Assembly: GCA_037917685.1 (NCBI GenBank)
Contig: JAVCBU010000012.1
Coordinates: 192,001-256,000, forward strand
Reading direction: 5' to 3'
Length of the DNA stretch: 64,000 nt
From: Thermoproteota archaeon
Lineage (GTDB): Archaea > Korarchaeota > Korarchaeia > Korarchaeales > JAOZGB01
Both the position numbers and the translations under genes were made by a program. This document shows, piece after piece, positions 1 to 36,125 of this stretch. The notes below the pieces were generated by a model that did no database searches, had not been told where the DNA came from, and saw only the letters and a list, made by a program, of their open reading frames with translations. Every line of letters starts with the position of its first letter. The stretch's first letter is position 1.

Positions 1-708
1 ACGGAATGTAAGCTTGGAAGTGAGCACGAGGTAAGATCGAAGCTGGGTAAAATATTTGAAAGCACTAAGGGTTTAGTTGCAGTAGGTATCGGCGAGCTTG
101 ATTTAGATCGGTTAAAATCAATATTCAAATCTGCGTCAAAAACTGGTAGGGAACTAGTGATCCCGCTTAGAACAGCTTTTATAATCAATGTTGTATCTTC
201 GGATCCCAAGTTGAGAATGCCACATATGGAGGATGTTAAAGTATATGTTAAGGAGAAGAGAAGGTACCGTCAGTTTGAAAAGTTTCTCCTGGGCGAACTT
301 GAAGATAAGGGATTAGAACCTGTCTCAACAGAGTATATCAGTAAGAACCAGAAGTCAACCGTTATGGTAGCGAACTATTACCATATGGAAGAACTTGCGA
401 GAATTAAACCTATGAGTGGTAGCGTATACATACTTTCGTCCACGGAACCATTTAATGAGGAAAGTGAAATGAGATATGAGAGACTTCAGGAATGGTTAAG
501 GTTCCTTGGGCTTCCGATGTACCTGTTACACGCTTCAGGACATGCTGATGCTTTAGACATAAGGTACTTAGTTGAAAGCGTGAAGCCAAGAGCTGTGGTT
601 CCGGTTCATACCGAGGATGGCGGGGTATTTCGGAAATTTGTTAATATCGAAGGGATTCAAGTTAGATGTGTGAAGGAGGGAGAAACTATCTCTACACTAA
701 GTATGTGA
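1..708 (+). CDS. MBL-fold metallo-hydrolase, RNase J/beta-CASP-like, C-terminal part (5' truncated by window edge)
   Basis: Frame 1 is open from base 1. C-terminal HASGHA and VVPVHTE motifs are typical of the RNase J/RMMBL region. Confidence 0.8.
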   Translation, partial: TECKLGSEHEVRSKLGKIFESTKGLVAVGIGELDLDRLKSIFKSASKTGRELVIPLRTAFIINVVSSDPKLRMPHMEDVKVYVKEKRRYRQFEKFLLGELEDKGLEPVSTEYISKNQKSTVMVANYYHMEELARIKPMSGSVYILSSTEPFNEESEMRYERLQEWLRFLGLPMYLLHASGHADALDIRYLVESVKPRAVVPVHTEDGGVFRKFVNIEGIQVRCVKEGETISTLSM

Positions 709-1201
709 ATGGTACGTGTTTCTCCCCTTTAGACACCCATTTCGTCATTAAGTATGCGTCTTCTCCGTCCATGTAGTATTTCGAGATTCTCTTTGTTATT
801 TCAAAACCCATCTTCTCGTACAGGTTGATCGCCGGCTTATTTGAAACCCGTACCTCGAGGTAAAAGCCGTCAACCTTGTCTGCAAGGTTTTTTATTACCC
901 CTTTAATTAGGGCGGTACCGACGCCTTTCCTCCTGTATCTCTCGTCTACAGCGATGGAGACTATATGTGCCCATTTTATCTTCTTGAAAAGGCTATAAGA
1001 GACTTCTAGCCTACACATAATATACCCTATCACTTTGTCCTCGACTATGGCAACTAGAAACCCATCTGGACAATTGTTGTATAGGCTTCTAAAGAAATAT
1101 TCAGGGTAGTTCTCCGGTAAGAATACTTTGTTTATCCTCCTAACTGCGTCTAGGTCTTCTAATCTAAACTTTCTAATCGTGAATAGCTTCCCCTCCCCCA
1201 T
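692..1201 (-). CDS. rimI: GNAT N-acetyltransferase (RimI/Ard1 family)
   Basis: LPENYP, HIVSIAV..YRRKGVG, YLEVRVSN.PAI.LY, YY.DGEDAYLM motifs. Confidence 0.93.
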   Translation of the reverse strand: MGEGKLFTIRKFRLEDLDAVRRINKVFLPENYPEYFFRSLYNNCPDGFLVAIVEDKVIGYIMCRLEVSYSLFKKIKWAHIVSIAVDERYRRKGVGTALIKGVIKNLADKVDGFYLEVRVSNKPAINLYEKMGFEITKRISKYYMDGEDAYLMTKWVSKGEKHVPFTYLV

Positions 1202-1565
1202 CTCCTTCCTCCTTCTCTAAGGTGAGGGCTACTCCTGTAGCTATGGTTTTAGCCTCTAAAAGCCCCCCCTCTACTCTTCCAATAGGAGACATAGGAAATG
1301 ATGGGTTCATATCTGTTAGTGCTACTATTAGTGCTCTAGACATAGGAGAATATGCTACATGGCCCTCCGGAAGTTTTTTGGCCTCTTTCTCTAAGCCGAT
1401 TTCCAGGTCTACCGGAACTTGAAGGAATTTACTTGTTTTTATGGCCATAGTTTTGATGGGTGTCAGCCTAAGAAGTCTTGACACTGTTAAGGGTGATGAT
1501 GCCTTATCTAACTTTACGATTATCTTCTTCCCTGTAGCATCTACTATTTTTATCCTTCCACACAT
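1173..1565 (-). CDS. Cyclophilin-like fold protein (TM1367/DUF369-like)
   Basis: SPLTV..L....P, G.VAYSP..ALIV, SPIGRV pattern; size 130 aa. Confidence 0.6.
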   Translation of the reverse strand: MCGRIKIVDATGKKIIVKLDKASSPLTVSRLLRLTPIKTMAIKTSKFLQVPVDLEIGLEKEAKKLPEGHVAYSPMSRALIVALTDMNPSFPMSPIGRVEGGLLEAKTIATGVALTLEKEEGDGGGEAIHD

Positions 1566-1583
1566 TGTGATCCCCTGATCCTT

Positions 1584-1808
1584 TCAGCTTATCCTACAGT
1601 ATATTTTCTGCTTTGAGTCTCCCATAACAAATTTGATCTTGCCTTCCCGCTCCATGAGTCTTAGGATGATTTTAGCAAGGCTAACCTTGATACCGTGTCT
1701 TGAAGCTATTTCTGAGGGTGTTATTACTTTAGCTTTCTCAAGATCTTTTTTAATTTTTTCAAGGAACTCTTTGTCAACTCTTGCTTCTATATAACTCCAA
1801 TCCATCAT
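1584..1808 (-). CDS. rps25e: 30S ribosomal protein S25e
   Basis: KIKKDLEKAKVITPSEIASRHGIKVSLAKIILR.MEREGKIK.V......KIY is the S25e winged-helix signature. Confidence 0.88.
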   Translation of the reverse strand: MMDWSYIEARVDKEFLEKIKKDLEKAKVITPSEIASRHGIKVSLAKIILRLMEREGKIKFVMGDSKQKIYCRIS

Positions 1809-2743
1809 TACATCCCTAGCTGCTTCCTTAGCTCCATGAGTTGTCTCTCTATTTCTTTAAATCTTTCCTTATACTCCATCTCTATCATTTTTTTCTTTCT
1901 TTGAAGCAGCTTAATCTTTGCAGCTGCTATTATCTTATCTATATTTGAAATATCCTCCCTTATCATTGATAATATCTTGTCTTTAAGTGTATCGCAAATA
2001 TAGCCTTTCTCCTTGTCCTCGCTAACTTTAGAAGAAATGCTTAAAAGCTGGTTTTTAAGGTTGTCAAGATATGAAATCTCTGCTTCGGTCAGTTCTGGCA
2101 TCTCAAACACCCCAGGTTCAATGGATGGGGATACTAAGGGTTTTGTCTCCAGTTTCGGGGCCTCCCCAGGTTTGAACTCTTCTTCTAAGGGTTTGGAAGT
2201 CGGTATTTCAAGAGGTAGGCGTTCCTCTGGTGGTTTTTCCGGGAGGGGACGAGGCTCTTCTGGTGGTTTTTCCGGGAGGGGACGAGGCTCTTCTGGTGGT
2301 TTTTCTTCCATTGCTGGTTTTTCTGCGGCTCTCAGAGCCATTTCAAGCCTTTTCTCAAGATCTTGGACATCGGTGGTAGGGGGTTTTGTTTTTTCTTCTA
2401 TTTTTTCCCTAATCCAGAATGGGAGTTCTTCCTCCTCCTCTTTCTCAGGTTCCTCCTGGGGTGGCAATGCGGACACCTCAAAACTTTCCACTGGCTTAGG
2501 AGGTGGAGCCTCCTCTACTTTCCCGGACGGCTTAGGTAAGGCCTCTTCCAGTCCGGGGATTTCGAAAGATTCAGGTTGTTTTCTACCTTTAATAAGTACT
2601 ACTATAACTGTAGAAGCGAGGGCAATTATTATTACAGTGAGTAGAAATATTTCAGGCACATTTAATGGTGGAGGGAGTACGCTTACTAACCTATTTAGGA
2701 ATTGTAATATGTTTGATATAAACCGTGGGAGGTATCCGTACAA
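1808..2743 (-). CDS. Membrane-anchored Pro/Glu-rich protein with C-terminal helical/coiled-coil domain
   Basis: N-terminal TM helix (IFLLTVIIIALASTVIVVLI), long P/E/K-rich linker with repeats, heptad-like C-terminus. Stop overlaps the rps25e start. Confidence 0.75.
   Translation of the reverse strand: MYGYLPRFISNILQFLNRLVSVLPPPLNVPEIFLLTVIIIALASTVIVVLIKGRKQPESFEIPGLEEALPKPSGKVEEAPPPKPVESFEVSALPPQEEPEKEEEEELPFWIREKIEEKTKPPTTDVQDLEKRLEMALRAAEKPAMEEKPPEEPRPLPEKPPEEPRPLPEKPPEERLPLEIPTSKPLEEEFKPGEAPKLETKPLVSPSIEPGVFEMPELTEAEISYLDNLKNQLLSISSKVSEDKEKGYICDTLKDKILSMIREDISNIDKIIAAAKIKLLQRKKKMIEMEYKERFKEIERQLMELRKQLGM
2226..2305 (-). repeat. 33-bp coding tandem repeat, about 2.4 copies (EKPPEEPRPLP)
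   Basis: tctggtggtttttccgggaggggacgaggctct at 2226-2258 and 2259-2291, plus a partial third copy. Confidence 0.95.
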
Positions 2744-2746
2744 GTT

Positions 2747-3487
2747 TTATCCCTCAAGACTTAGATTGACTATTCGAACTAATAAAGCTATCGTAAGATC
2801 CCCGTAGAGCAAGGATAAAATTAGACCGAATGTTAGGAATACTATAAAGGGTATGCCTGGGGTAACCCATACATAGTCATTTTCAAAGTTTTCCTTTCTT
2901 TCGATGTAAGATTCGATCTTTGGGAGGAAAACAAACTTTCTAGCACCATTCAACTTTTTCTCCATAATCGCATGAAACCTTATTGTTCCGACTTTAGAGG
3001 GTTTAACAGGCCTCCCGATAAGAACAGCGATAATTTTTCTATGGAAGGGCTCGTCAAATCCATGAAATATCGGTTTTCCCTTTATAATTAAGGATGAATT
3101 GTGGATTAGGTTGAAAATTGGAAGGGAAAGAGATAAGATATTAGCGTTTATGAAAACTGTTAAAGGAAAAGAAACTAACACTGGATTCCTAGTCGGAAAG
3201 GGGGGGTATGGTAATAGTAAGGAGAGCGACAGTAGGGCTTTAATGTCTGCACCCCCATAGAGGCCTAGAAACCATAAGATTCCTGATAAAATAAGAGTAG
3301 GTAAGATAGCCATTGCGGCGAAGATGTAAGTTTCGTATTTAAACGTTTCATATGCTGTCATTAAAACTCCGCTGGAGATCATAGCTATCCAGATTCTGTT
3401 GTCAATCATTCTAGTTTTATAGTCTTGAATTGAAGCAGCGGAGAGTCCGATAAATGAGATGAGAACTTTAAATAGGCCTGTTCTCAT
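2747..3487 (-). CDS. Prepilin/prearchaellin peptidase (A24, FlaK/PibD type)
   Basis: ASIQDYKTRMIDN (first Asp), GGADIKAL (GxGD), C-terminal VWVTPGIPFIVFL. Confidence 0.92.
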   Translation of the reverse strand: MRTGLFKVLISFIGLSAASIQDYKTRMIDNRIWIAMISSGVLMTAYETFKYETYIFAAMAILPTLILSGILWFLGLYGGADIKALLSLSLLLPYPPFPTRNPVLVSFPLTVFINANILSLSLPIFNLIHNSSLIIKGKPIFHGFDEPFHRKIIAVLIGRPVKPSKVGTIRFHAIMEKKLNGARKFVFLPKIESYIERKENFENDYVWVTPGIPFIVFLTFGLILSLLYGDLTIALLVRIVNLSLEG

Positions 3488-28235: not shown

Positions 28236-29582
28236 TTGGCGGTTGAACTTCTCTACGATAGGGGTACGATTATCATAAGAGGAGAAGTTAGCGTACCATT
28301 TGCTGTATGGGATGACAGGTCCGTGTGCTATAGAGCTCAAGCCTTTAGGTATAGGGATATCGTAGAGTATCTTAGGAGAAGCGGGATTAGTTTTAAAGAT
28401 AGGGTTTGGAATCTCATTCCTTCCGTCAATTTCTCTTTTAAAGCTGCACTTAGAGACTACCAGGTTAATGCTTACCGTTCATGGGTTGATTCTGGGAAGA
28501 GGGGTGTGGTGGTTCTACCAACCGGGTCAGGGAAAACATTTATTGCTCTTAAGGCTATTTATGAATTGCAAGCTTCAACCTTAATTGTCGTTCCAACTCT
28601 TCCTCTCGTAGAGCAGTGGTGTAGACTGGTTAAACAACATCTAAATGTTGAGCCCGGGATTTATGGTGGAGGGAAGCATGTTTTAGGTTCAGTAACGGTT
28701 TCAACCTACGATTCCGCATATATCAGAGCCGAGGAGCTTGGCGACAAGTTTCTACTTGTTATTTTTGACGAGGCTCACCATCTCGCCGCTGAAGGATATA
28801 TCCAAATAGCTGAGATGCTTGCAGCACCCTATAGGCTTGGTTTAACCGCCACATTCGAAAGGGAGGATGGAAGACACGTATTACTTTTCAGGGTTCTTGG
28901 GGGTGTCGTTTTTAGGCTTGGCCCGGAGGATATGAAGGGCCGTCACCTTGCAGATTTTAGGGTTGTTAGGATTCCTGTTAGTCTTACGGAAGAGGAGAGG
29001 AATAGATATGATGAGCTTGTAAGAACTTATAAGAAACTTCTAAGGGACTCCGGGATAAGTATTAGGTCGATTGATGACTTTAGGAAACTTATAATGAGAA
29101 GTGGAACTTCAAAGGCGGCTAGAAAGGCCCTGCTTGCGTGGAATGAGGCTAGAAAGATAGCTATAAATTCGGAGTCTAAAATCGATGTTTTAAGTAATTT
29201 GCTGGAGGCGCATAGGGATGAGAAGGTTATTATCTTTACTGAATTTAACAGTATGGCTGAAAGAGTGAGTAGACGGTTTCTTATCCCACTTATAACACAG
29301 AAGACTGGTAAGCTGGAGCGGCAGGCTATCCTAGAAGGTTTTAGGAATGGTAGGTTTACAAAGATTGTTACGTCTAAAGTTTTAGATGAAGGTTTAGACG
29401 TGCCTGATGCGAGTATTGCTATAATTCTTGGAGGTACTGGAAGCAAAAGAGAATTTATACAGAGACTTGGAAGAATTTTAAGGAAAAAACAGGGGAAACA
29501 GGCGATTCTCTACGAGGTTGTATCAGCCGGGACGGCTGAAACAAGAATTTCATGGAGGAGGAGAAAGGCCCTAGATATCTAG
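28236..29582 (+). CDS. xpb: XPB/Rad25 DNA repair helicase
   Basis: LRDYQ, LPTGSGKT, DEAHH, LGLTAT.ER.D, VLDEGLDVP, QRLGRILR. Confidence 0.93.
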   Translation: MAVELLYDRGTIIIRGEVSVPFAVWDDRSVCYRAQAFRYRDIVEYLRRSGISFKDRVWNLIPSVNFSFKAALRDYQVNAYRSWVDSGKRGVVVLPTGSGKTFIALKAIYELQASTLIVVPTLPLVEQWCRLVKQHLNVEPGIYGGGKHVLGSVTVSTYDSAYIRAEELGDKFLLVIFDEAHHLAAEGYIQIAEMLAAPYRLGLTATFEREDGRHVLLFRVLGGVVFRLGPEDMKGRHLADFRVVRIPVSLTEEERNRYDELVRTYKKLLRDSGISIRSIDDFRKLIMRSGTSKAARKALLAWNEARKIAINSESKIDVLSNLLEAHRDEKVIIFTEFNSMAERVSRRFLIPLITQKTGKLERQAILEGFRNGRFTKIVTSKVLDEGLDVPDASIAIILGGTGSKREFIQRLGRILRKKQGKQAILYEVVSAGTAETRISWRRRKALDI

Positions 29583-29593
29583 AGGTGGGGGCC

Positions 29594-31156
29594 ATGTTGC
29601 CATCTACTCTCCTTAGAGCTAGAAGGCGTGGAGGCCGGTTGTTGGTTCTATTCGCAAGAGGCAAGGGGGTGGAGGCGAATGTAGCAGCTGGGCTCATAGG
29701 TCTTTTTGAACGCAGTATTGGCAAGAGCCTGTCAGATCTAAGTAGCGAATTGGAGGACCTGGAAAAGATGTATGAGGCCGCAGGCGTCGATTACAAGTTC
29801 TGCAGAGGATTAAGCGTGCTACTTTTACGGAGATGCGGCTTACGGAGGGAGAATCCTAAGATAGAGCCTGTGAAGGCTAGGCTAACTGTTTACGATGTTA
29901 TTAACAGGTTATATGGTGGATTTCTACCATCAGAGCAATTTAGGGAAGCAGTCCTCAAAAGAGCTGCTACAATTCTCGGGGTAGACGAATTAGAGCTTGA
30001 AGAATCTATGTACTCGGACAGTGAAGATGCTATAGTTGTTGAGGAGTTTAAGCGTATTGGTACATCCGAGCTTCTCAAAGAGTACAATCTAGCACTCTTA
30101 CAAACTGCACTGTTTAAAGCAACTTCCATGACGATTGAAACCTCGGCATCAGGATGGGAGATTAAACCATTACTGAGGGATGTCAAGTTTAGGGGGCTAA
30201 TGTACATTGCTTACAAGATAAATAAATGTGTGAGGATAGTTCTTGATGGTCCTTCGTCGCTGATTAAAATGACAACACGGTATGGGACAGCCATGGCGAA
30301 GGTAATACCAAGAATAATCTCCCTTAGTGACTGGAGCATTAGGGCTACCGTTGTAAGGAAGGTTTCGGGTAGACCTAGATATTTAACTCTCTCCATTGAT
30401 GATTCTAAGAGAAAACTTTTCCCAGAATCTAAGGTTGAAATCGAATCCTTCGATAGTGTTGTCGAGAGGGACTTTTATAGAGTTGTCCAACAGGCAGGAT
30501 GGAGGGTGGAAAGAGAGCCTGAACCATTGGTTTCAGATGGAAATATTGTAATACCTGATTTCAAAGTTTCAAGAAACGGTATAGACCTGTACGTTGAGAT
30601 AGTCGGTTATTGGACTGCCGAATATCTTAAAAGGAAGATAGAAAAGTTGAAAGGTCTTAAAGACAAGATTGTTATCCTTGCCGACAAAAGATTAGCATGT
30701 TCCTCTCTCCAGAGACTTCCGATGGAAGTAGTATACTATGATGGAAAGGTGACTCCTATACAGGTTTATAAAGCCCTCTCCAAATACTCAAAAAAGCCTG
30801 TTGGCATGGTGGACATTGAAGCTATAAGCAGAGTTTTAAAGGGTGAAATTGTCGATTTAAAGAGGATTGCCAAAGAGAAGAATATAGATCTGAAATTAGT
30901 AGAGGCGAAAGTGAAGGAAAAGGGTGAATATATCGTAGTAGGGGGGATTGCTGTTCATAGGGATTTATCTTCACGGGTTTCAACTGTAATCAAGGAGAGA
31001 GGATTCTTAACATATGGCGAAGCTTACAGAACGCTGTCAAGTTTAGATATTCCTGAAGATTACCATGTGCCGGTTTTAGAGGCAGCTGGATACCGCCTAA
31101 AATGGCGTGGAATAGATATCAAGAGTGCCTTGATAGTACGGAAGGAAATGGAATAG
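29594..31156 (+). CDS. bax1: Bax1 endonuclease (DUF790)
   Basis: MLPS.LL, YNL.L.QT.LF, DGP.SL...T.RYG..MA, FDS.VE..F, REPEP, IPDF, VEIVGYWT.EYL; directly after XPB. Confidence 0.9.
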   Translation: MLPSTLLRARRRGGRLLVLFARGKGVEANVAAGLIGLFERSIGKSLSDLSSELEDLEKMYEAAGVDYKFCRGLSVLLLRRCGLRRENPKIEPVKARLTVYDVINRLYGGFLPSEQFREAVLKRAATILGVDELELEESMYSDSEDAIVVEEFKRIGTSELLKEYNLALLQTALFKATSMTIETSASGWEIKPLLRDVKFRGLMYIAYKINKCVRIVLDGPSSLIKMTTRYGTAMAKVIPRIISLSDWSIRATVVRKVSGRPRYLTLSIDDSKRKLFPESKVEIESFDSVVERDFYRVVQQAGWRVEREPEPLVSDGNIVIPDFKVSRNGIDLYVEIVGYWTAEYLKRKIEKLKGLKDKIVILADKRLACSSLQRLPMEVVYYDGKVTPIQVYKALSKYSKKPVGMVDIEAISRVLKGEIVDLKRIAKEKNIDLKLVEAKVKEKGEYIVVGGIAVHRDLSSRVSTVIKERGFLTYGEAYRTLSSLDIPEDYHVPVLEAAGYRLKWRGIDIKSALIVRKEME

Positions 31157-31785: not shown

Positions 31786-33114
31786 ATGAAGAGAATAAGG
31801 ACTATAATTATGGGTGCGGCTGGTAGAGATTTTCATAACTTTAACGTTTACTTTCGGGACAACGAACGTTTTGAAGTGATATGCTTTACACATGGGCAGC
31901 TGCCTATTGATACGAAAAGGATGTATCCACCTGTGCTTGCAGGCAAGTTGTATCCCAATGGTATTCCCATATATCCGGAGTCAATGTTACCGGAGCTGAT
32001 AAAAAAGTACGATGTCGACCTTGTAGTTTTCTCTTATAGCGATGTTTCTCATTTATACGTCATGGAGAAGGCCTCCGTGGCGATGGCTAATGGAGCAAGC
32101 TTCATGCTACTCGGGCCTAAGGATACCCTGCTAGAGTCGAAAAGGCCTGTTATAGCCATCTGTGCTGTTAGGACTGGCTCTGGAAAGAGCCCAACTACCA
32201 GGAAAATTAGTGGAATAGTTAAGGAGCTAGGTTTAAGAGCCGCTGTGATTAGGCATCCCATGCCTTACGGTGACCTGTCAAAGCAGATTGTTATGGAATT
32301 AAGAAGATTGGAGGATCTGGATAAGTATAAATGTACGGTGGAGGAGAGAGAAGATTTCACCCACCTTTTAAAATCAGGTTTTACGGTGCTAGCGGGTGTA
32401 GATTATGATAAGGTTTTGAAGAGAGCTGAAGAGATAGCTGATGTTATAATATGGGATGGAGGAAATAACGATTTTCCATTTATCAGACCTGACCTATTGT
32501 TTGTTGTAGCTGATCCCTTTAGAGCCGGCCACGAGGTATCGTATTATCCTGGAATGATTAATTTTCTAATGGCAGATGTGATTGTGGTGAATAAGGTCAA
32601 CTCAGCATCTCCGGACGGAGTGGAAAAGGTAATTCACAATGCTAGAAAATACAACCCTAAAGCTATAATTGTGAAAACTGAATCTGTTATAAGCTGCGAT
32701 TGCGATGTTGACATTAAAGGCAAGTCTGTAGCTGTTGTGGAAGATGGACCAACCACAACACATGGTGGCATGCCGTATGGGGCTGGTTATCTGTTTGCTA
32801 AGAGTTCTGGCGCTAAGATCGTTGATCCCAAGAGATTCGCTGTTGGGGAGTATAAGAAGATATATGAAGAGTATAGCCATTTAGGCCCTGTAATTCCTGC
32901 GGTAGGGTATAGTAACGAGCAGGTTAGGATGCTTGAAGCGATGCTTAACTCCATCGATTGTGACGCTGTTGTTTCAGGTACTCCTATCGAACTTTCAAGT
33001 CTGGTTAAGATTAATAAGCCGATATATAACGTGAGATATGATGTTAAGGTTGTTAAAGGACCAACTTTTAAGGAGATCATACATGAATTCTTAAAGAGAA
33101 GGGGTCTTATCTAG
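31786..33114 (+). CDS. COG2403 P-loop GTPase (cyclic 2,3-diphosphoglycerate synthetase-like)
   Basis: MGAAGRDFHNFN, AVRTGSGKS, RHPMPYGDL, WDGGNND, EDGPT.THGGM. Confidence 0.88.
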   Translation: MKRIRTIIMGAAGRDFHNFNVYFRDNERFEVICFTHGQLPIDTKRMYPPVLAGKLYPNGIPIYPESMLPELIKKYDVDLVVFSYSDVSHLYVMEKASVAMANGASFMLLGPKDTLLESKRPVIAICAVRTGSGKSPTTRKISGIVKELGLRAAVIRHPMPYGDLSKQIVMELRRLEDLDKYKCTVEEREDFTHLLKSGFTVLAGVDYDKVLKRAEEIADVIIWDGGNNDFPFIRPDLLFVVADPFRAGHEVSYYPGMINFLMADVIVVNKVNSASPDGVEKVIHNARKYNPKAIIVKTESVISCDCDVDIKGKSVAVVEDGPTTTHGGMPYGAGYLFAKSSGAKIVDPKRFAVGEYKKIYEEYSHLGPVIPAVGYSNEQVRMLEAMLNSIDCDAVVSGTPIELSSLVKINKPIYNVRYDVKVVKGPTFKEIIHEFLKRRGLI

Positions 33115-33903: not shown

Positions 33904-35349
33904 CTAACCATTTTCTACTGTTCTTAGTAATTTCTCGATCTCTTCTAACTCTCTGGATATTTCGTCGTCGATTTTTTTCTTGTTAACCAGTTTCTCCTTG
34001 ATTTGAAATATCAGGGTTTTTATCTGTGCGTTTCCGTAGAGTATGGCGTTTATCAATGGAGTGAGGGATACTCTATGCTTCACAGTGTATTCTATTTTTG
34101 TATCCATCAAGAATTCAGCTATCCTTCTGATTTCTTTGCTGGCTTTAGAGTCCGGATATTGTAAAGCGGCGGGTATACCCATTCTATAAGACTTCTCCAT
34201 ATTTTCATCGTATGGGACTACGAAGCAGGGCTGCGAGTCAGACTTCTTGAGCGGTCTTGTTAACTCTTTGAGATTTTTTAGATCTTTTTTCCTAACTTTA
34301 TTTACAATGTAAGCTGGATATTCTATTCTGAGAAGTGTTGATAGGTCTATTAAAGGTTGGGTCGCGTTTATCGTTGGTTTATTCGGTTCCACAACAGGTA
34401 GAAATGCATCTGAGATTGGAAGTAAAAGGTAGTAGTCTGCCATACCTGAAAATCCTCCGCCCCCAGGCCCATCTATTATAATCATTTGGCACTTTGATTT
34501 AAGGAAACTGGTAAGATTCTTCATTTTTTCTTCGTATCTTTGGTAGTTTCTATATAAGTCTTTCTTAGTTGTAAATATCTGTGAAGCGGGTATGAAAGCT
34601 ATGTTTTTATACTCAGGGTACCTGCCGCTCACATGCGCTATTTCCCATGGTTTGGCTGAATCGTTTAAGTACTCTTTAAGGGTGGGGTAATTGTCTGGGT
34701 TCTCTTCTCTAGCCTTTATAAAATCTGGATCCCAAAGAAATTCTGAACTATTTCTCCCAAAGTCTGCCTCTATAAAGGCTATCCTCTTGTTATAGAGTTT
34801 CGAGAGCCAGACAGCTACGTTAAAGCTTATACTCGTACACCCGGTATTATGGATAACAGTCCCGGAAGAAATGTAGTTGTTGTACTCGTCAACAGTGAGA
34901 TCGTAAAAATACGTATCTACAGTTGTTCGAGATATCTTTGAAACTTCTATGGTTTTTCTGTCCGACGTGCTAAATAGCTTGTCCTGCTTGTTTAATCTGA
35001 AAGCTTCTTTATATAACAGTTTAGAGCCTTGGACTATCAAAAAAGGATGCCGAGGTGACGTTAATAATACATTTCCATTAGATAGTTCCACCTTACATAT
35101 TTCCCCCTTTACAGGTATCTTCCATATGCATCTAACCTCATTCCATTTAAAACGGCCATTCTCCGGATTTACGCTTTGTACTTTAAGCTTCCCTTGAGGG
35201 AGAATAACCACTGTTACTTCATGTTTAAAAAAACCTACCATCTTCTCAAAAAGACGTTTGAAAACTATGTTTCCATACTCTTTGGTGAGTATCGTGGAAT
35301 CTCCGTCGATGCATCCCCCTCCAATTTTACCAAATGTTACAACCTTCAA
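33904..35349 (-). CDS. MinD/ParA-family (TadZ/CpaE-like) P-loop protein containing an intein
   Basis: Spliced N-terminus MKVVTFGKIGGG|TGCTSISFNVA; IEADFG, IIIDGPGG, IVNKV, VPYD....S...G.P....PDS.AS..I..IA. Confidence 0.85.
   Translation of the reverse strand: MKVVTFGKIGGGCIDGDSTILTKEYGNIVFKRLFEKMVGFFKHEVTVVILPQGKLKVQSVNPENGRFKWNEVRCIWKIPVKGEICKVELSNGNVLLTSPRHPFLIVQGSKLLYKEAFRLNKQDKLFSTSDRKTIEVSKISRTTVDTYFYDLTVDEYNNYISSGTVIHNTGCTSISFNVAVWLSKLYNKRIAFIEADFGRNSSEFLWDPDFIKAREENPDNYPTLKEYLNDSAKPWEIAHVSGRYPEYKNIAFIPASQIFTTKKDLYRNYQRYEEKMKNLTSFLKSKCQMIIIDGPGGGGFSGMADYYLLLPISDAFLPVVEPNKPTINATQPLIDLSTLLRIEYPAYIVNKVRKKDLKNLKELTRPLKKSDSQPCFVVPYDENMEKSYRMGIPAALQYPDSKASKEIRRIAEFLMDTKIEYTVKHRVSLTPLINAILYGNAQIKTLIFQIKEKLVNKKKIDDEISRELEEIEKLLRTVENG
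34846..35313 (-). mobile_element. Mini-intein (156 aa, no homing endonuclease)
   Basis: Block A CIDGDSTIL, block B L.NG..L.TSPRHPF, block F YFYDLTVD.YNNY, block G VIHN followed by +1 Thr. Confidence 0.92.
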
Positions 35350-35540
35350 GAAATCTCACCAAGAACATCAGCTAACTCCTTGAGAGCGTCTTCTATCTCC
35401 ATAACTCTTTTTTCTAGAATATTTACCCTTTCAATGAGAATTTTTAACCCTGAAACCATGGTTTTAGCATGACTATTGTTGCCTCTTAATGGATTGGAGC
35501 CTTCAACCTCATCGAATGCTCTATTGATGTTCATTTTCAC
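35346..35540 (-). CDS. Small coiled-coil protein translationally coupled to the MinD-like gene
   Basis: LIERVNILEKRVMEIEDALKEL heptads; 4-nt overlap with the downstream start. Confidence 0.65.
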   Translation of the reverse strand: MKMNINRAFDEVEGSNPLRGNNSHAKTMVSGLKILIERVNILEKRVMEIEDALKELADVLGEIS

Positions 35541-35624: not shown

Positions 35625-35897
35625 ATGGCTATAGAACTATTTAGAGCTCTTGGGCATAAGCATCGATATGTAGTTTATAAAATGCTTGAAGAAGATCCTC
35701 TAACCAAGGGAGAGATTGCAAGAAGGCTTGGAATATCCATTGCTCACTTGTCATATCATATAACCAGGCTTAAAGAAGCAGGGATAGTAATCGAGTACAG
35801 AAAGGGACACAAGAAGTATTTACGCTTATCAAAAAGACTAATAGTCGAAGTTTGGGATTCGAGCCCTAAAAATACTCCAAACAAGCATTCTGTTTAA
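35625..35897 (+). CDS. ArsR-family HTH regulator
   Basis: FRALG...R..V..ML...PLT.GEIA..LGIS..LSYHI..L..AGIV. Confidence 0.88.
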   Translation: MAIELFRALGHKHRYVVYKMLEEDPLTKGEIARRLGISIAHLSYHITRLKEAGIVIEYRKGHKKYLRLSKRLIVEVWDSSPKNTPNKHSV

Positions 35898-35909: not shown

Positions 35910-36125
35910 GTGAATGAAGTTTTAGGGGCAGGCTTATTGCTTGCAGTTACTGTAGGAATATTTATAGCTGCAGTTATACCTCCGATAGCCAATGTTCTAA
36001 GCTGGATCGAAGACAAACCTGCTAGAAACCACACCAACATTCAGAACTTACTTGACTGGATTAATTCAGGGCTAGATAAAATATTCGGACATGAAAATGA
36101 GAATCAAACAACAAGCCCAGGATAG
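35910..36125 (+). CDS. Small single-TM protein with pilin-like N-terminus
   Basis: (V)NEVLGAGLLLAVTVGI resembles the mature archaeal pilin N-terminus VSEVIG.ILL.AI.V. Confidence 0.55.
   Translation: MNEVLGAGLLLAVTVGIFIAAVIPPIANVLSWIEDKPARNHTNIQNLLDWINSGLDKIFGHENENQTTSPG

Follow-up and report, generated by a model that had tools for sequence, protein, structure and literature searches.

What interrupts the Walker A loop of a MinD/ParA-like protein in a member of the Korarchaeota, and what kind of protein would be left once the interruption is removed? The gene that raises this question lies on a 64,000-nucleotide stretch of contig JAVCBU010000012.1 (assembly GCA_037917685.1, positions 192,001 to 256,000 of the forward strand), referred to here as the window, in which positions 33904..35349 of the minus strand form a single open reading frame (ORF) of 481 amino acids. 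The frame starts with TTG and, because it stays open for just two codons further upstream (483 in all), this is its sole possible start. We consider it highly probable that the ORF carries a class-1 mini-intein in the Walker A loop of a divergent archaeal MinD-like protein, that the element is an old, vertically inherited remnant which still splices, and that its host hydrolyses ATP slowly or not at all.

The identity of the insert as an intein follows from three curated hidden Markov models (HMMs), each of which it matched above the cut-off: Pfam Intein_splicing (PF14890; E 3.6e-17, 63 bits, cut-off 35.8), TIGR01445 intein_Nterm (41.9 bits, cut-off 24.5) and TIGR01443 intein_Cterm (22.9 bits, cut-off 15.6). 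PT-HINT was the sole further Pfam match at E<=1, and at this threshold neither LAGLIDADG, HNH nor any other endonuclease family was matched in the insert, which at 156 residues leaves no space for an endonuclease domain. A first-pass annotation of the window, made from the DNA alone, had described exactly such an endonuclease-free mini-intein (CIDGDS...IHN, 156 amino acids) inside the Walker A loop of a MinD/ParA-fold protein, with the frame resuming at TGCTSISFNVA and 325 amino acids remaining after splicing. The ORF and its coordinates bear this description out, as does the Hint/intein HMM scan that the annotation proposed; only the strand, which is minus, was missing from it.

The boundaries of the intein (coordinates of this and other features are collected in Table 1) are fixed by intein-free relatives that run colinear through the junction. 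In P0008 the sequence KVVTFGKRQGG-SGATTISF corresponds residue for residue to the N-extein followed by the C-extein, with no gap and with Ser at +1, and P0013 (FGKQGGG-TGATTVSV) is likewise gap-free across the junction of both exteins; seven more intein-free family members also align over it without gaps. The predicted spliced product is therefore 12 + 313 = 325 amino acids long. The residues of a class-1 splicing reaction can be read in the intein, namely Cys1, the Ser-x-x-His of block B (LLTSPRHPF), YDLTV in block F and a terminal His-Asn, after which comes Thr+1. With this set of residues we infer that the precursor splices: an N-S acyl shift at Cys1 would be succeeded by trans-esterification to the hydroxyl of Thr+1, the terminal Asn would cyclise with the aid of the penultimate His, and an O-N shift would then restore the Gly12-Thr169 peptide bond and free the 325-residue protein. 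Among inteins of solved structure, the Pyrococcus PolII (DP2) mini-inteins 5bkh, 2lcj and 7oec are nearest in sequence (E 3.1e-9 to 7.8e-9), and the next solved matches are PI-PfuI, the CDC21 and RadA inteins and MJ0781.

Orthologues were found both with and without the intein, the comparison for which the first-pass annotation had called. A word-indexed search with the C-extein (1387 candidates, E<=0.001) returned five proteins: the query, the intein-bearing P0005 (481 amino acids), P0006 (479) and P0007 (488), and the intein-free P0008 (338). An exhaustive phmmer search over 1.84 billion representatives gave 38 matches at E<=1e-3, 11 of which reached E<=4.5e-24; two of these 11 are of intein length and nine are of 289-338 amino acids. 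A profile search of a 5.8-billion collection with our ten-row family alignment (A2) recovered at least six proteins among the best 8000 candidates, a single one of them new (P0053). Within the phylum to which GTDB assigns the genome, 11 of the 43 species genomes contain the family, and the 483-codon frame occurs in two of these 11 (the source genome G000 and its congener G001), the other nine having frames of 290-350 codons. Taken across all sources, the intein-bearing architecture was seen in G000, in G001 (locus L012), in locus L015 and in the database clusters P0005 (five members) and P0007.

The intein entered this family once. In a maximum-likelihood tree of 19 rows, in which the four intein-bearers were represented by the C-extein only and the other proteins by their first 330 residues, and which was completed by five canonical MinD-like proteins as outgroups, the rows with an intein, four in number, group together as a single clade (support 96/98). 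Within this clade divergence is considerable: our intein and that of P0007, both of 156 amino acids, are 32.7% identical (48 of 147 aligned positions) and the corresponding C-exteins 45.0% identical; Cys1, the block-B His, YDLTV, His-Asn and Thr+1 are common to both inteins. The ratio of non-synonymous to synonymous substitution rates (dN/dS, Nei-Gojobori method) indicates purifying selection on intein and C-extein alike, with values of 0.19 and 0.10 between the loci L010 and L015, the pair with a trustworthy ratio (dS 0.35-0.59), and of 0.13 and 0.067 (window and L010) and 0.14 and 0.055 (window and L015) for the two pairs that involve the window, whose dS of 1.1-1.9 is near saturation. Given a single clade of intein-bearers and an intein dN/dS of 0.13-0.19, indicative of purifying selection, the element is probably old, inherited vertically and still splicing. 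It may go back to a single ancient invasion in the ancestor of this small clade, with the endonuclease lost or absent from the start, followed by vertical descent under selection for splicing. The element would then be an immobile remnant of a selfish element, whose splicing competence would be maintained by selection on the host protein and by the rarity of precise deletion. A search with the intein alone among longer proteins (252 candidates) gave three matches, all of them the query itself or two close orthologues, and pointed to no donor lineage.

The host belongs to a very small, divergent family of archaeal MinD-like proteins that fall below the curated MinD thresholds. By itself the C-extein matched only TIGR01969 minD_arch with E 4.5e-10 and 39.1 bits (cut-off 201.75) and Pfam AAA_31 with 14.4 bits (cut-off 27), and Pfam CbiA was matched at E<=0.01 by eight of the ten rows of A2. 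A profile of the ten-member family retrieved the archaeal MinD structures 1hyq (E 2.1e-16), 1ion and 1g3q at E 2e-16 to 3e-15, with FleN, ParA and FlhG after them (MinD/FlhG/FleN matches down to E 5.5e-11). The AF2 model of the intein-free P0008, built with the family alignment, has a predicted local distance difference test score (pLDDT) of 82.9 and a predicted template modelling score (pTM) of 0.83; its best Foldseek matches are FlhG (4rz2) and Archaeoglobus fulgidus MinD (1hyq), with a template modelling (TM) score by target of 0.84, and FleN, Soj, ParA, MinD and McdA come next. By this model and the profile matches the host protein has the MinD/ParA fold. Two or more other proteins of the same genome match MinD_arch better (145 and 135 bits) and several further paralogues score lower, so that the protein is one among several SIMIBI paralogues of its genome and the sole one bearing an intein. 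P0018 (314 amino acids, from a metagenome) is a family member which seemingly lacks strand β1 and the entire P-loop, and may be either a derivative or a truncated gene call.

TadZ proteins carry an N-terminal receiver-like domain and are located in tad/cpa loci. The TadZ-like label that the first-pass annotation attached to the protein was not upheld: its P-loop lies at residue 7, no receiver-like domain precedes it, no pilus genes are found nearby, and the nearest solved relatives are archaeal MinD and FlhG/FleN. We accordingly rejected a TadZ/CpaE identity, as the protein begins at strand β1, does not lie in a pilus locus, and does not have TadZ among its top profile or structural matches.

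The loop restored by splicing differs from that of MinD at both conserved lysines. Numbering the P-loop from the residue aligned to the GK[ST] lysine (position 0), MinD reads S G K G G x G K T from -7 to +1 and the spliced protein K I G G G T G C T. Cys171 aligns under the Lys of GKT in A2 as well as when the family profile is matched to solved MinDs, so that the spliced loop K-I-G-G-G-T-G-C-T-S has Gly in the place of the signature lysine and Cys in that of the GK[ST] lysine, departs from the deviant motif KGGxGK[ST], and retains a sole lysine two residues N-terminal of the signature position. The first-pass description of a restored GGG-TGCT loop with Cys for the catalytic lysine and a displaced Lys thus agrees with both alignments, and its observation that the insertion site is not the usual one after GK was equally correct. 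The intein sits between positions -3 and -2 (GG/TG, the slash marking the insertion point), three residues N-terminal of the classic P-loop intein site, which PMC5050341 places between Lys and Thr (GK/T).

Elsewhere in the family the loop reads KGGxGKTT (P0011, P0016), RGGVGKTT (P0010, P0012), ARSGGVGKTT (P0009) or LQGGGTGKTT (P0014, P0015), and in our protein as in P0005, P0006, P0007, P0008, P0053, P0013 and P0017 it takes the form GK-xx-GG-x-G-[C/S/A]-[TS], the GK[ST] lysine being replaced by Cys in our protein and by Ser or Ala in its relatives. The Walker B Asp (IIIDGPGG) is present, with D and P invariant, and the second Asp of Switch I is invariant in A2, whereas the first Asp of the MinD DxD is Glu in eight of its ten rows. 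The IEAD that the first-pass annotation noted in place of IDAD is present, and its use as a sign of degeneracy does not stand, Glu being the norm of the family. A P-loop without the GK[ST] lysine is normally no longer catalytic. Judged from the sequence of its loop, it is plausible that the protein has lost ATP hydrolysis, and in the cell it is most likely a nucleotide-binding, slowly hydrolysing or non-hydrolysing scaffold or positioning protein. Inactive ParA versions, as well as a clade with Arg for the Walker A lysine, are mentioned in a preprint (10.64898/2026.10.19.760177).

One rival reading concerns hydrolysis: Lys(-7) in the GK-xx-GG arrangement might stand in for the lost lysine or lysines and allow ATP cycling like that of MinD. 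The pattern is suggestive: Lys at -7 is found in all eight lysine-less members (P0003, P0005, P0006, P0007, P0008, P0053, P0013 and P0017), in none of the seven GK[ST] members (P0009-P0012 and P0014-P0016, which have A, N, N, N, L, L and N) and in none of five outgroup MinDs, and the basal P0017 is apparently an independent second origin. The protein also keeps Walker B, the Switch-I Asp and, for base binding, the NK and P-x-D regions. A precedent exists in Eubacterium rectale TadZ, likewise a ParA/MinD-family protein without both conserved Walker A lysines, which in PMC10482377 (citing Xu 2012) is reported as an ATPase in which a lysine from a neighbouring helix compensates for the loss. With this precedent the loss of ATPase activity is less than certain. 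On the other side, the lysine covariation was observed among related proteins, with two clearly separate origins (P0017 and the rest), so that the independent events are few, and position -7 lies at the end of strand β1, two residues from the signature-lysine position and away from the γ-phosphate site that the GK[ST] lysine occupies. We regard a functional replacement by Lys(-7) as unlikely, though it deserves to be taken seriously; it would leave the other parts of our interpretation untouched. The lysine-less P0008 and P0013, the GKTT-type P0009 and P0014/P0015 and the intein clade form a polytomy, so that lysine loss may have come before or after intein gain.

The state of the intein itself can also be read differently. 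In this genus the Thr that P0007 has in block B is replaced by Ser (SPRH versus TPWH), and the block-F position reads NNY instead of HTY; with these two deviant auxiliary positions splicing could be slow or conditional. The AF2 model of the whole precursor, made with a five-row alignment (A1), is poor over the intein (pLDDT 25-50, against about 60-94 for the extein part), so that for the intein fold the evidence is that of the HMMs, and our evidence for the extein fold comes from P0008, a 42%-identical stand-in for the spliced protein. Could the intein, as the first-pass annotation suggested, be a conditional switch that gates maturation of the MinD-like protein by redox or temperature, for instance through a disulfide between Cys1 and Cys171 (extein position +3) that traps the precursor? 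In this genus the two cysteines would sit near each other at the junction, the block-B Ser and block-F Asn could slow the reaction, and conditional splicing is documented for the archaeal Pyrococcus horikoshii RadA intein (PMC4513877 and PMC5790916). However, the Cys pair does not accompany the intein throughout, as Ser stands at +3 in P0007, from the other intein-bearing lineage; chance alone often places two cysteines close to a junction, the analysis revealed no regulatory context, and the purifying selection on the intein, which would fit such a switch, is equally expected for any intein in a needed gene. We hold the switch to be speculative and improbable. The opposite view is that the intein is dead, the loop having become dispensable after lysine loss, with the 481-residue precursor as the functional form and the HINT domain a permanent part of it. 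The missing Walker A lysine and the two deviant positions would fit, but Cys1, the block-B His, the block-F Asp, His-Asn and Thr+1 have all been kept between inteins that are 33% identical, the dN/dS of the intein is 0.13-0.19, and the loop is still constrained, because its glycines and Thr/Ser are conserved in lysine-less relatives that have no intein; this makes a dead intein very improbable. Just as improbable is a reading that joins the Lys(-7) and switch ideas, in which the lysine-less branch consists of Lys(-7) nucleoside triphosphatases and the P-loop intein has been co-opted in this genus as a redox or heat gate (a Cys1-Cys(+3) trap) that times activity together with a 62-residue partner (see below). 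As the source is a metagenome-assembled genome, a chimeric contig or a false ORF fusion also has to be considered. The same unbroken 481-codon frame is shared by G001, the metagenome contig L015 and database clusters of several sources, and independent assemblies that share the frame exclude such an artefact to near certainty; two DNA runs, which may be the source sample, contain 99-100% of the sampled words, and no RNA run was among those listed. On balance, a spliced, vertically inherited mini-intein in a slow or non-hydrolysing MinD-like protein remains the reading that we favour.

Table 1 Positions of the intein-bearing gene, its parts, its neighbours and the compared loci (window coordinates unless a locus is named).
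Feature	Coordinates	Strand	Description
N-extein	35314..35349	-	12 amino acids, residues 1-12, MKVVTFGKIGGG; strand β1 and first half of Walker A loop
Mini-intein, class 1	34846..35313	-	156 amino acids, residues 13-168, CIDGDS to VIHN
Intein Cys1	35311..35313	-	
Intein terminal His-Asn	34846..34851	-	
C-extein	33904..34845	-	313 amino acids and stop; residue 169 onwards, starts TGCTSISFNVA; rest of MinD/ParA-like domain and C-terminal helical tail
Thr+1 of C-extein	34843..34845	-	
Second P-loop half	34831..34845	-	TGCTS, Cys at the place of the Walker A Lys
Switch-I-like strand and loop	34753..34773	-	IEADFGR; alignment A2 and alignment to 1hyq and 1ion
Walker B region	34453..34482	-	IIIDGPGGGG; D and P invariant in A1 and A2; aligned to DaPaG of solved MinDs
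62-residue ORF	35346..35534	-	C-terminal half coiled-coil-like; TGA stop overlaps TTG of the MinD-like gene (TTGA)
62-residue ORF, L010	812..1000		
62-residue ORF, L015	3312..3500		
ArsR/HTH_20 regulator	35625..35897	+	
71-residue ORF	35910..36125	+	
442-residue ORF	31786..33114	+	
DUF790 protein	29552..31156	+	
AbrB/MazE-like ORF, P0008 locus L016	22..201		
L019, locus with downstream membrane protein	1242..1502, 1480..2451, 2448..3236		
L022, locus with downstream membrane protein	546..1502, 1536..2291		

The MinD-like gene is preceded by an ORF of 62 codons that had no Pfam or NCBIfam match. Both the ORF and its TTGA overlap with the MinD-like gene are kept in L010 and L015, and its dN/dS in the three pairs of loci is 0.07-0.16, which marks it as a real and probably co-translated gene; its product is a candidate partner of the MinD-like protein. 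A complex prediction for the 62-residue protein and the C-extein scored 0.01 (mark 0.32), a result that speaks neither for nor against the partnership. The neighbouring genes are a CinA/MoCF-like gene, the 62-residue ORF, a gene with an ArsR-type helix-turn-helix (HTH), a small membrane ORF and an M28 peptidase gene, and there are no pilus genes among them. The ArsR/HTH_20 regulator (50 bits) is divergent from the pair of the small ORF and the MinD-like gene and is conserved in G001, as is the 71-residue ORF after it, which has one hydrophobic segment. A 442-residue ORF with a P-loop-like GSGKSPTT, which matched neither Pfam nor NCBIfam families at the thresholds applied, is conserved beside the locus in G001 and presumably resembles proteins of the cyclic 2,3-diphosphoglycerate synthetase type. 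The DUF790 protein (353 bits) belongs to the family of the Bax1-type nuclease partner of the XPB helicase. A scan for promoters and terminators yielded counts at shuffle level, with bacterial-type models that are not applicable to an archaeon.

Loci of the family beyond the genus hint that its members work with membrane proteins and small adaptors, without establishing a family-wide gene module. At the P0008 locus a small AbrB/MazE-like ORF (SpoVT/AbrB fold; 23.9 bits, cut-off 24.7) ends three bases before the MinD-like gene. At the P0010 locus an 86-residue coiled-coil ORF with weak similarity to our 62-residue ORF (E 0.006 in a one-to-one comparison) lies upstream and a 262-residue membrane protein downstream, and the gene in L022 also has a membrane protein after it. 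In these GKT-type members (loci L019 and L022) the membrane protein is multi-pass, has about 250-260 amino acids and no Pfam match, and lies directly after the MinD-like gene, and in P0017 the MinD-like domain is fused to a hydrophobic, membrane-like tail. The P0009-type loci L013, L014 and L018 have no common upstream small ORF, and one query with the L019 membrane protein found no match in our genome.

For intein biology, the locus adds a MinD/ParA-like host class and, within the Walker A loop, an insertion point of its own (GG/TG versus GK/T). It shows that an intein lacking an endonuclease can survive, under purifying selection, in a protein that is narrowly distributed, non-replicative and already without the catalytic lysine, which fits the view that inteins are held in P-loops by loop geometry and the difficulty of precise deletion and not by catalysis as such. 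The family also offers a natural Walker A series (KGGxGKT, RGGxGKT, xQGGGxGKT and GKxxGGxG[C/S/A]T) in which basic residues covary strikingly, and this series could be used to probe how far such loops tolerate relocation of the lysine.

How unusual is the combination? No account of an intein in MinD, ParA, Soj or Mrp came up in the literature searched. ParA, MinD, Soj and 'partition' do not occur in the main text of PMC4760082, whose supplementary tables S5-S7, with further P-loop hosts, may include the host class; the word 'intein' has no occurrence in the preprint on ParA-like NTPases (10.64898/2026.10.19.760177). The first-pass annotation had called both host and site unusual. The site does differ from GK/T; the uniqueness of the host class is weakened by a lead (score 0.81) from the ESM Atlas, a cluster of 125 members of about 710 amino acids, mostly from Nitrososphaerota, annotated with CbiA (100%), ParA/NUBPL (100%) and Intein_splicing (98%). 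As a host class ParA/MinD is thus probably not unique. By the cluster description, those inteins are set apart as large (about 400 extra residues) and as residing in canonical lysine-bearing proteins. The source genome has four other intein genes, encoding a HerA-like ATPase, PolB, MCM and a radical-SAM (AmmeMemoRadiSam-like) protein (C19:49150-49935, C6:200832-201731, C6:355048-356322 and C22:35457-36914); the HerA-like and radical-SAM-like hosts are weak family matches, and radical-SAM proteins are uncommon as intein hosts.

Seen beside known systems, the element itself is ordinary and in a favourite kind of site, and neither the intein nor the ParA/MinD point is a major surprise. The classic P-loop inteins (MCM-a, DnaB-b, RFC-S-a and mycobacteriophage TerL1-a; PMC4760082 and PMC5050341) are also class-1 HINT elements in the Walker A loop, have Thr at +1 and keep their hosts inactive until spliced. 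Their site is GK/T, whereas here it lies three residues earlier (GG/TG-C-T), and their hosts are replication, repair and packaging ATPases, in contrast to a MinD/ParA-class protein without the invariant Lys. The Pyrococcus DP2 mini-inteins are likewise small, archaeal and devoid of an endonuclease, with another host protein and another insertion site, and the similarity to them extends chiefly over the N-terminal 130 residues. Archaeal MinD (1hyq, 1ion, 1g3q) and FlhG/FleN (4rz2, 5j1j) share the fold of the host (Foldseek E 2e-14, TM score by target 0.76-0.84) together with Walker B and the Switch-I Asp, whereas our protein has neither the signature nor the GK[ST] lysine, adds a helical C-terminal tail of about 60 residues, and belongs to a family limited to a few archaeal lineages. 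What is particular to this locus is the conjunction of a mini-intein, the GG/TG site, a very narrow host family and a lysine-less loop.

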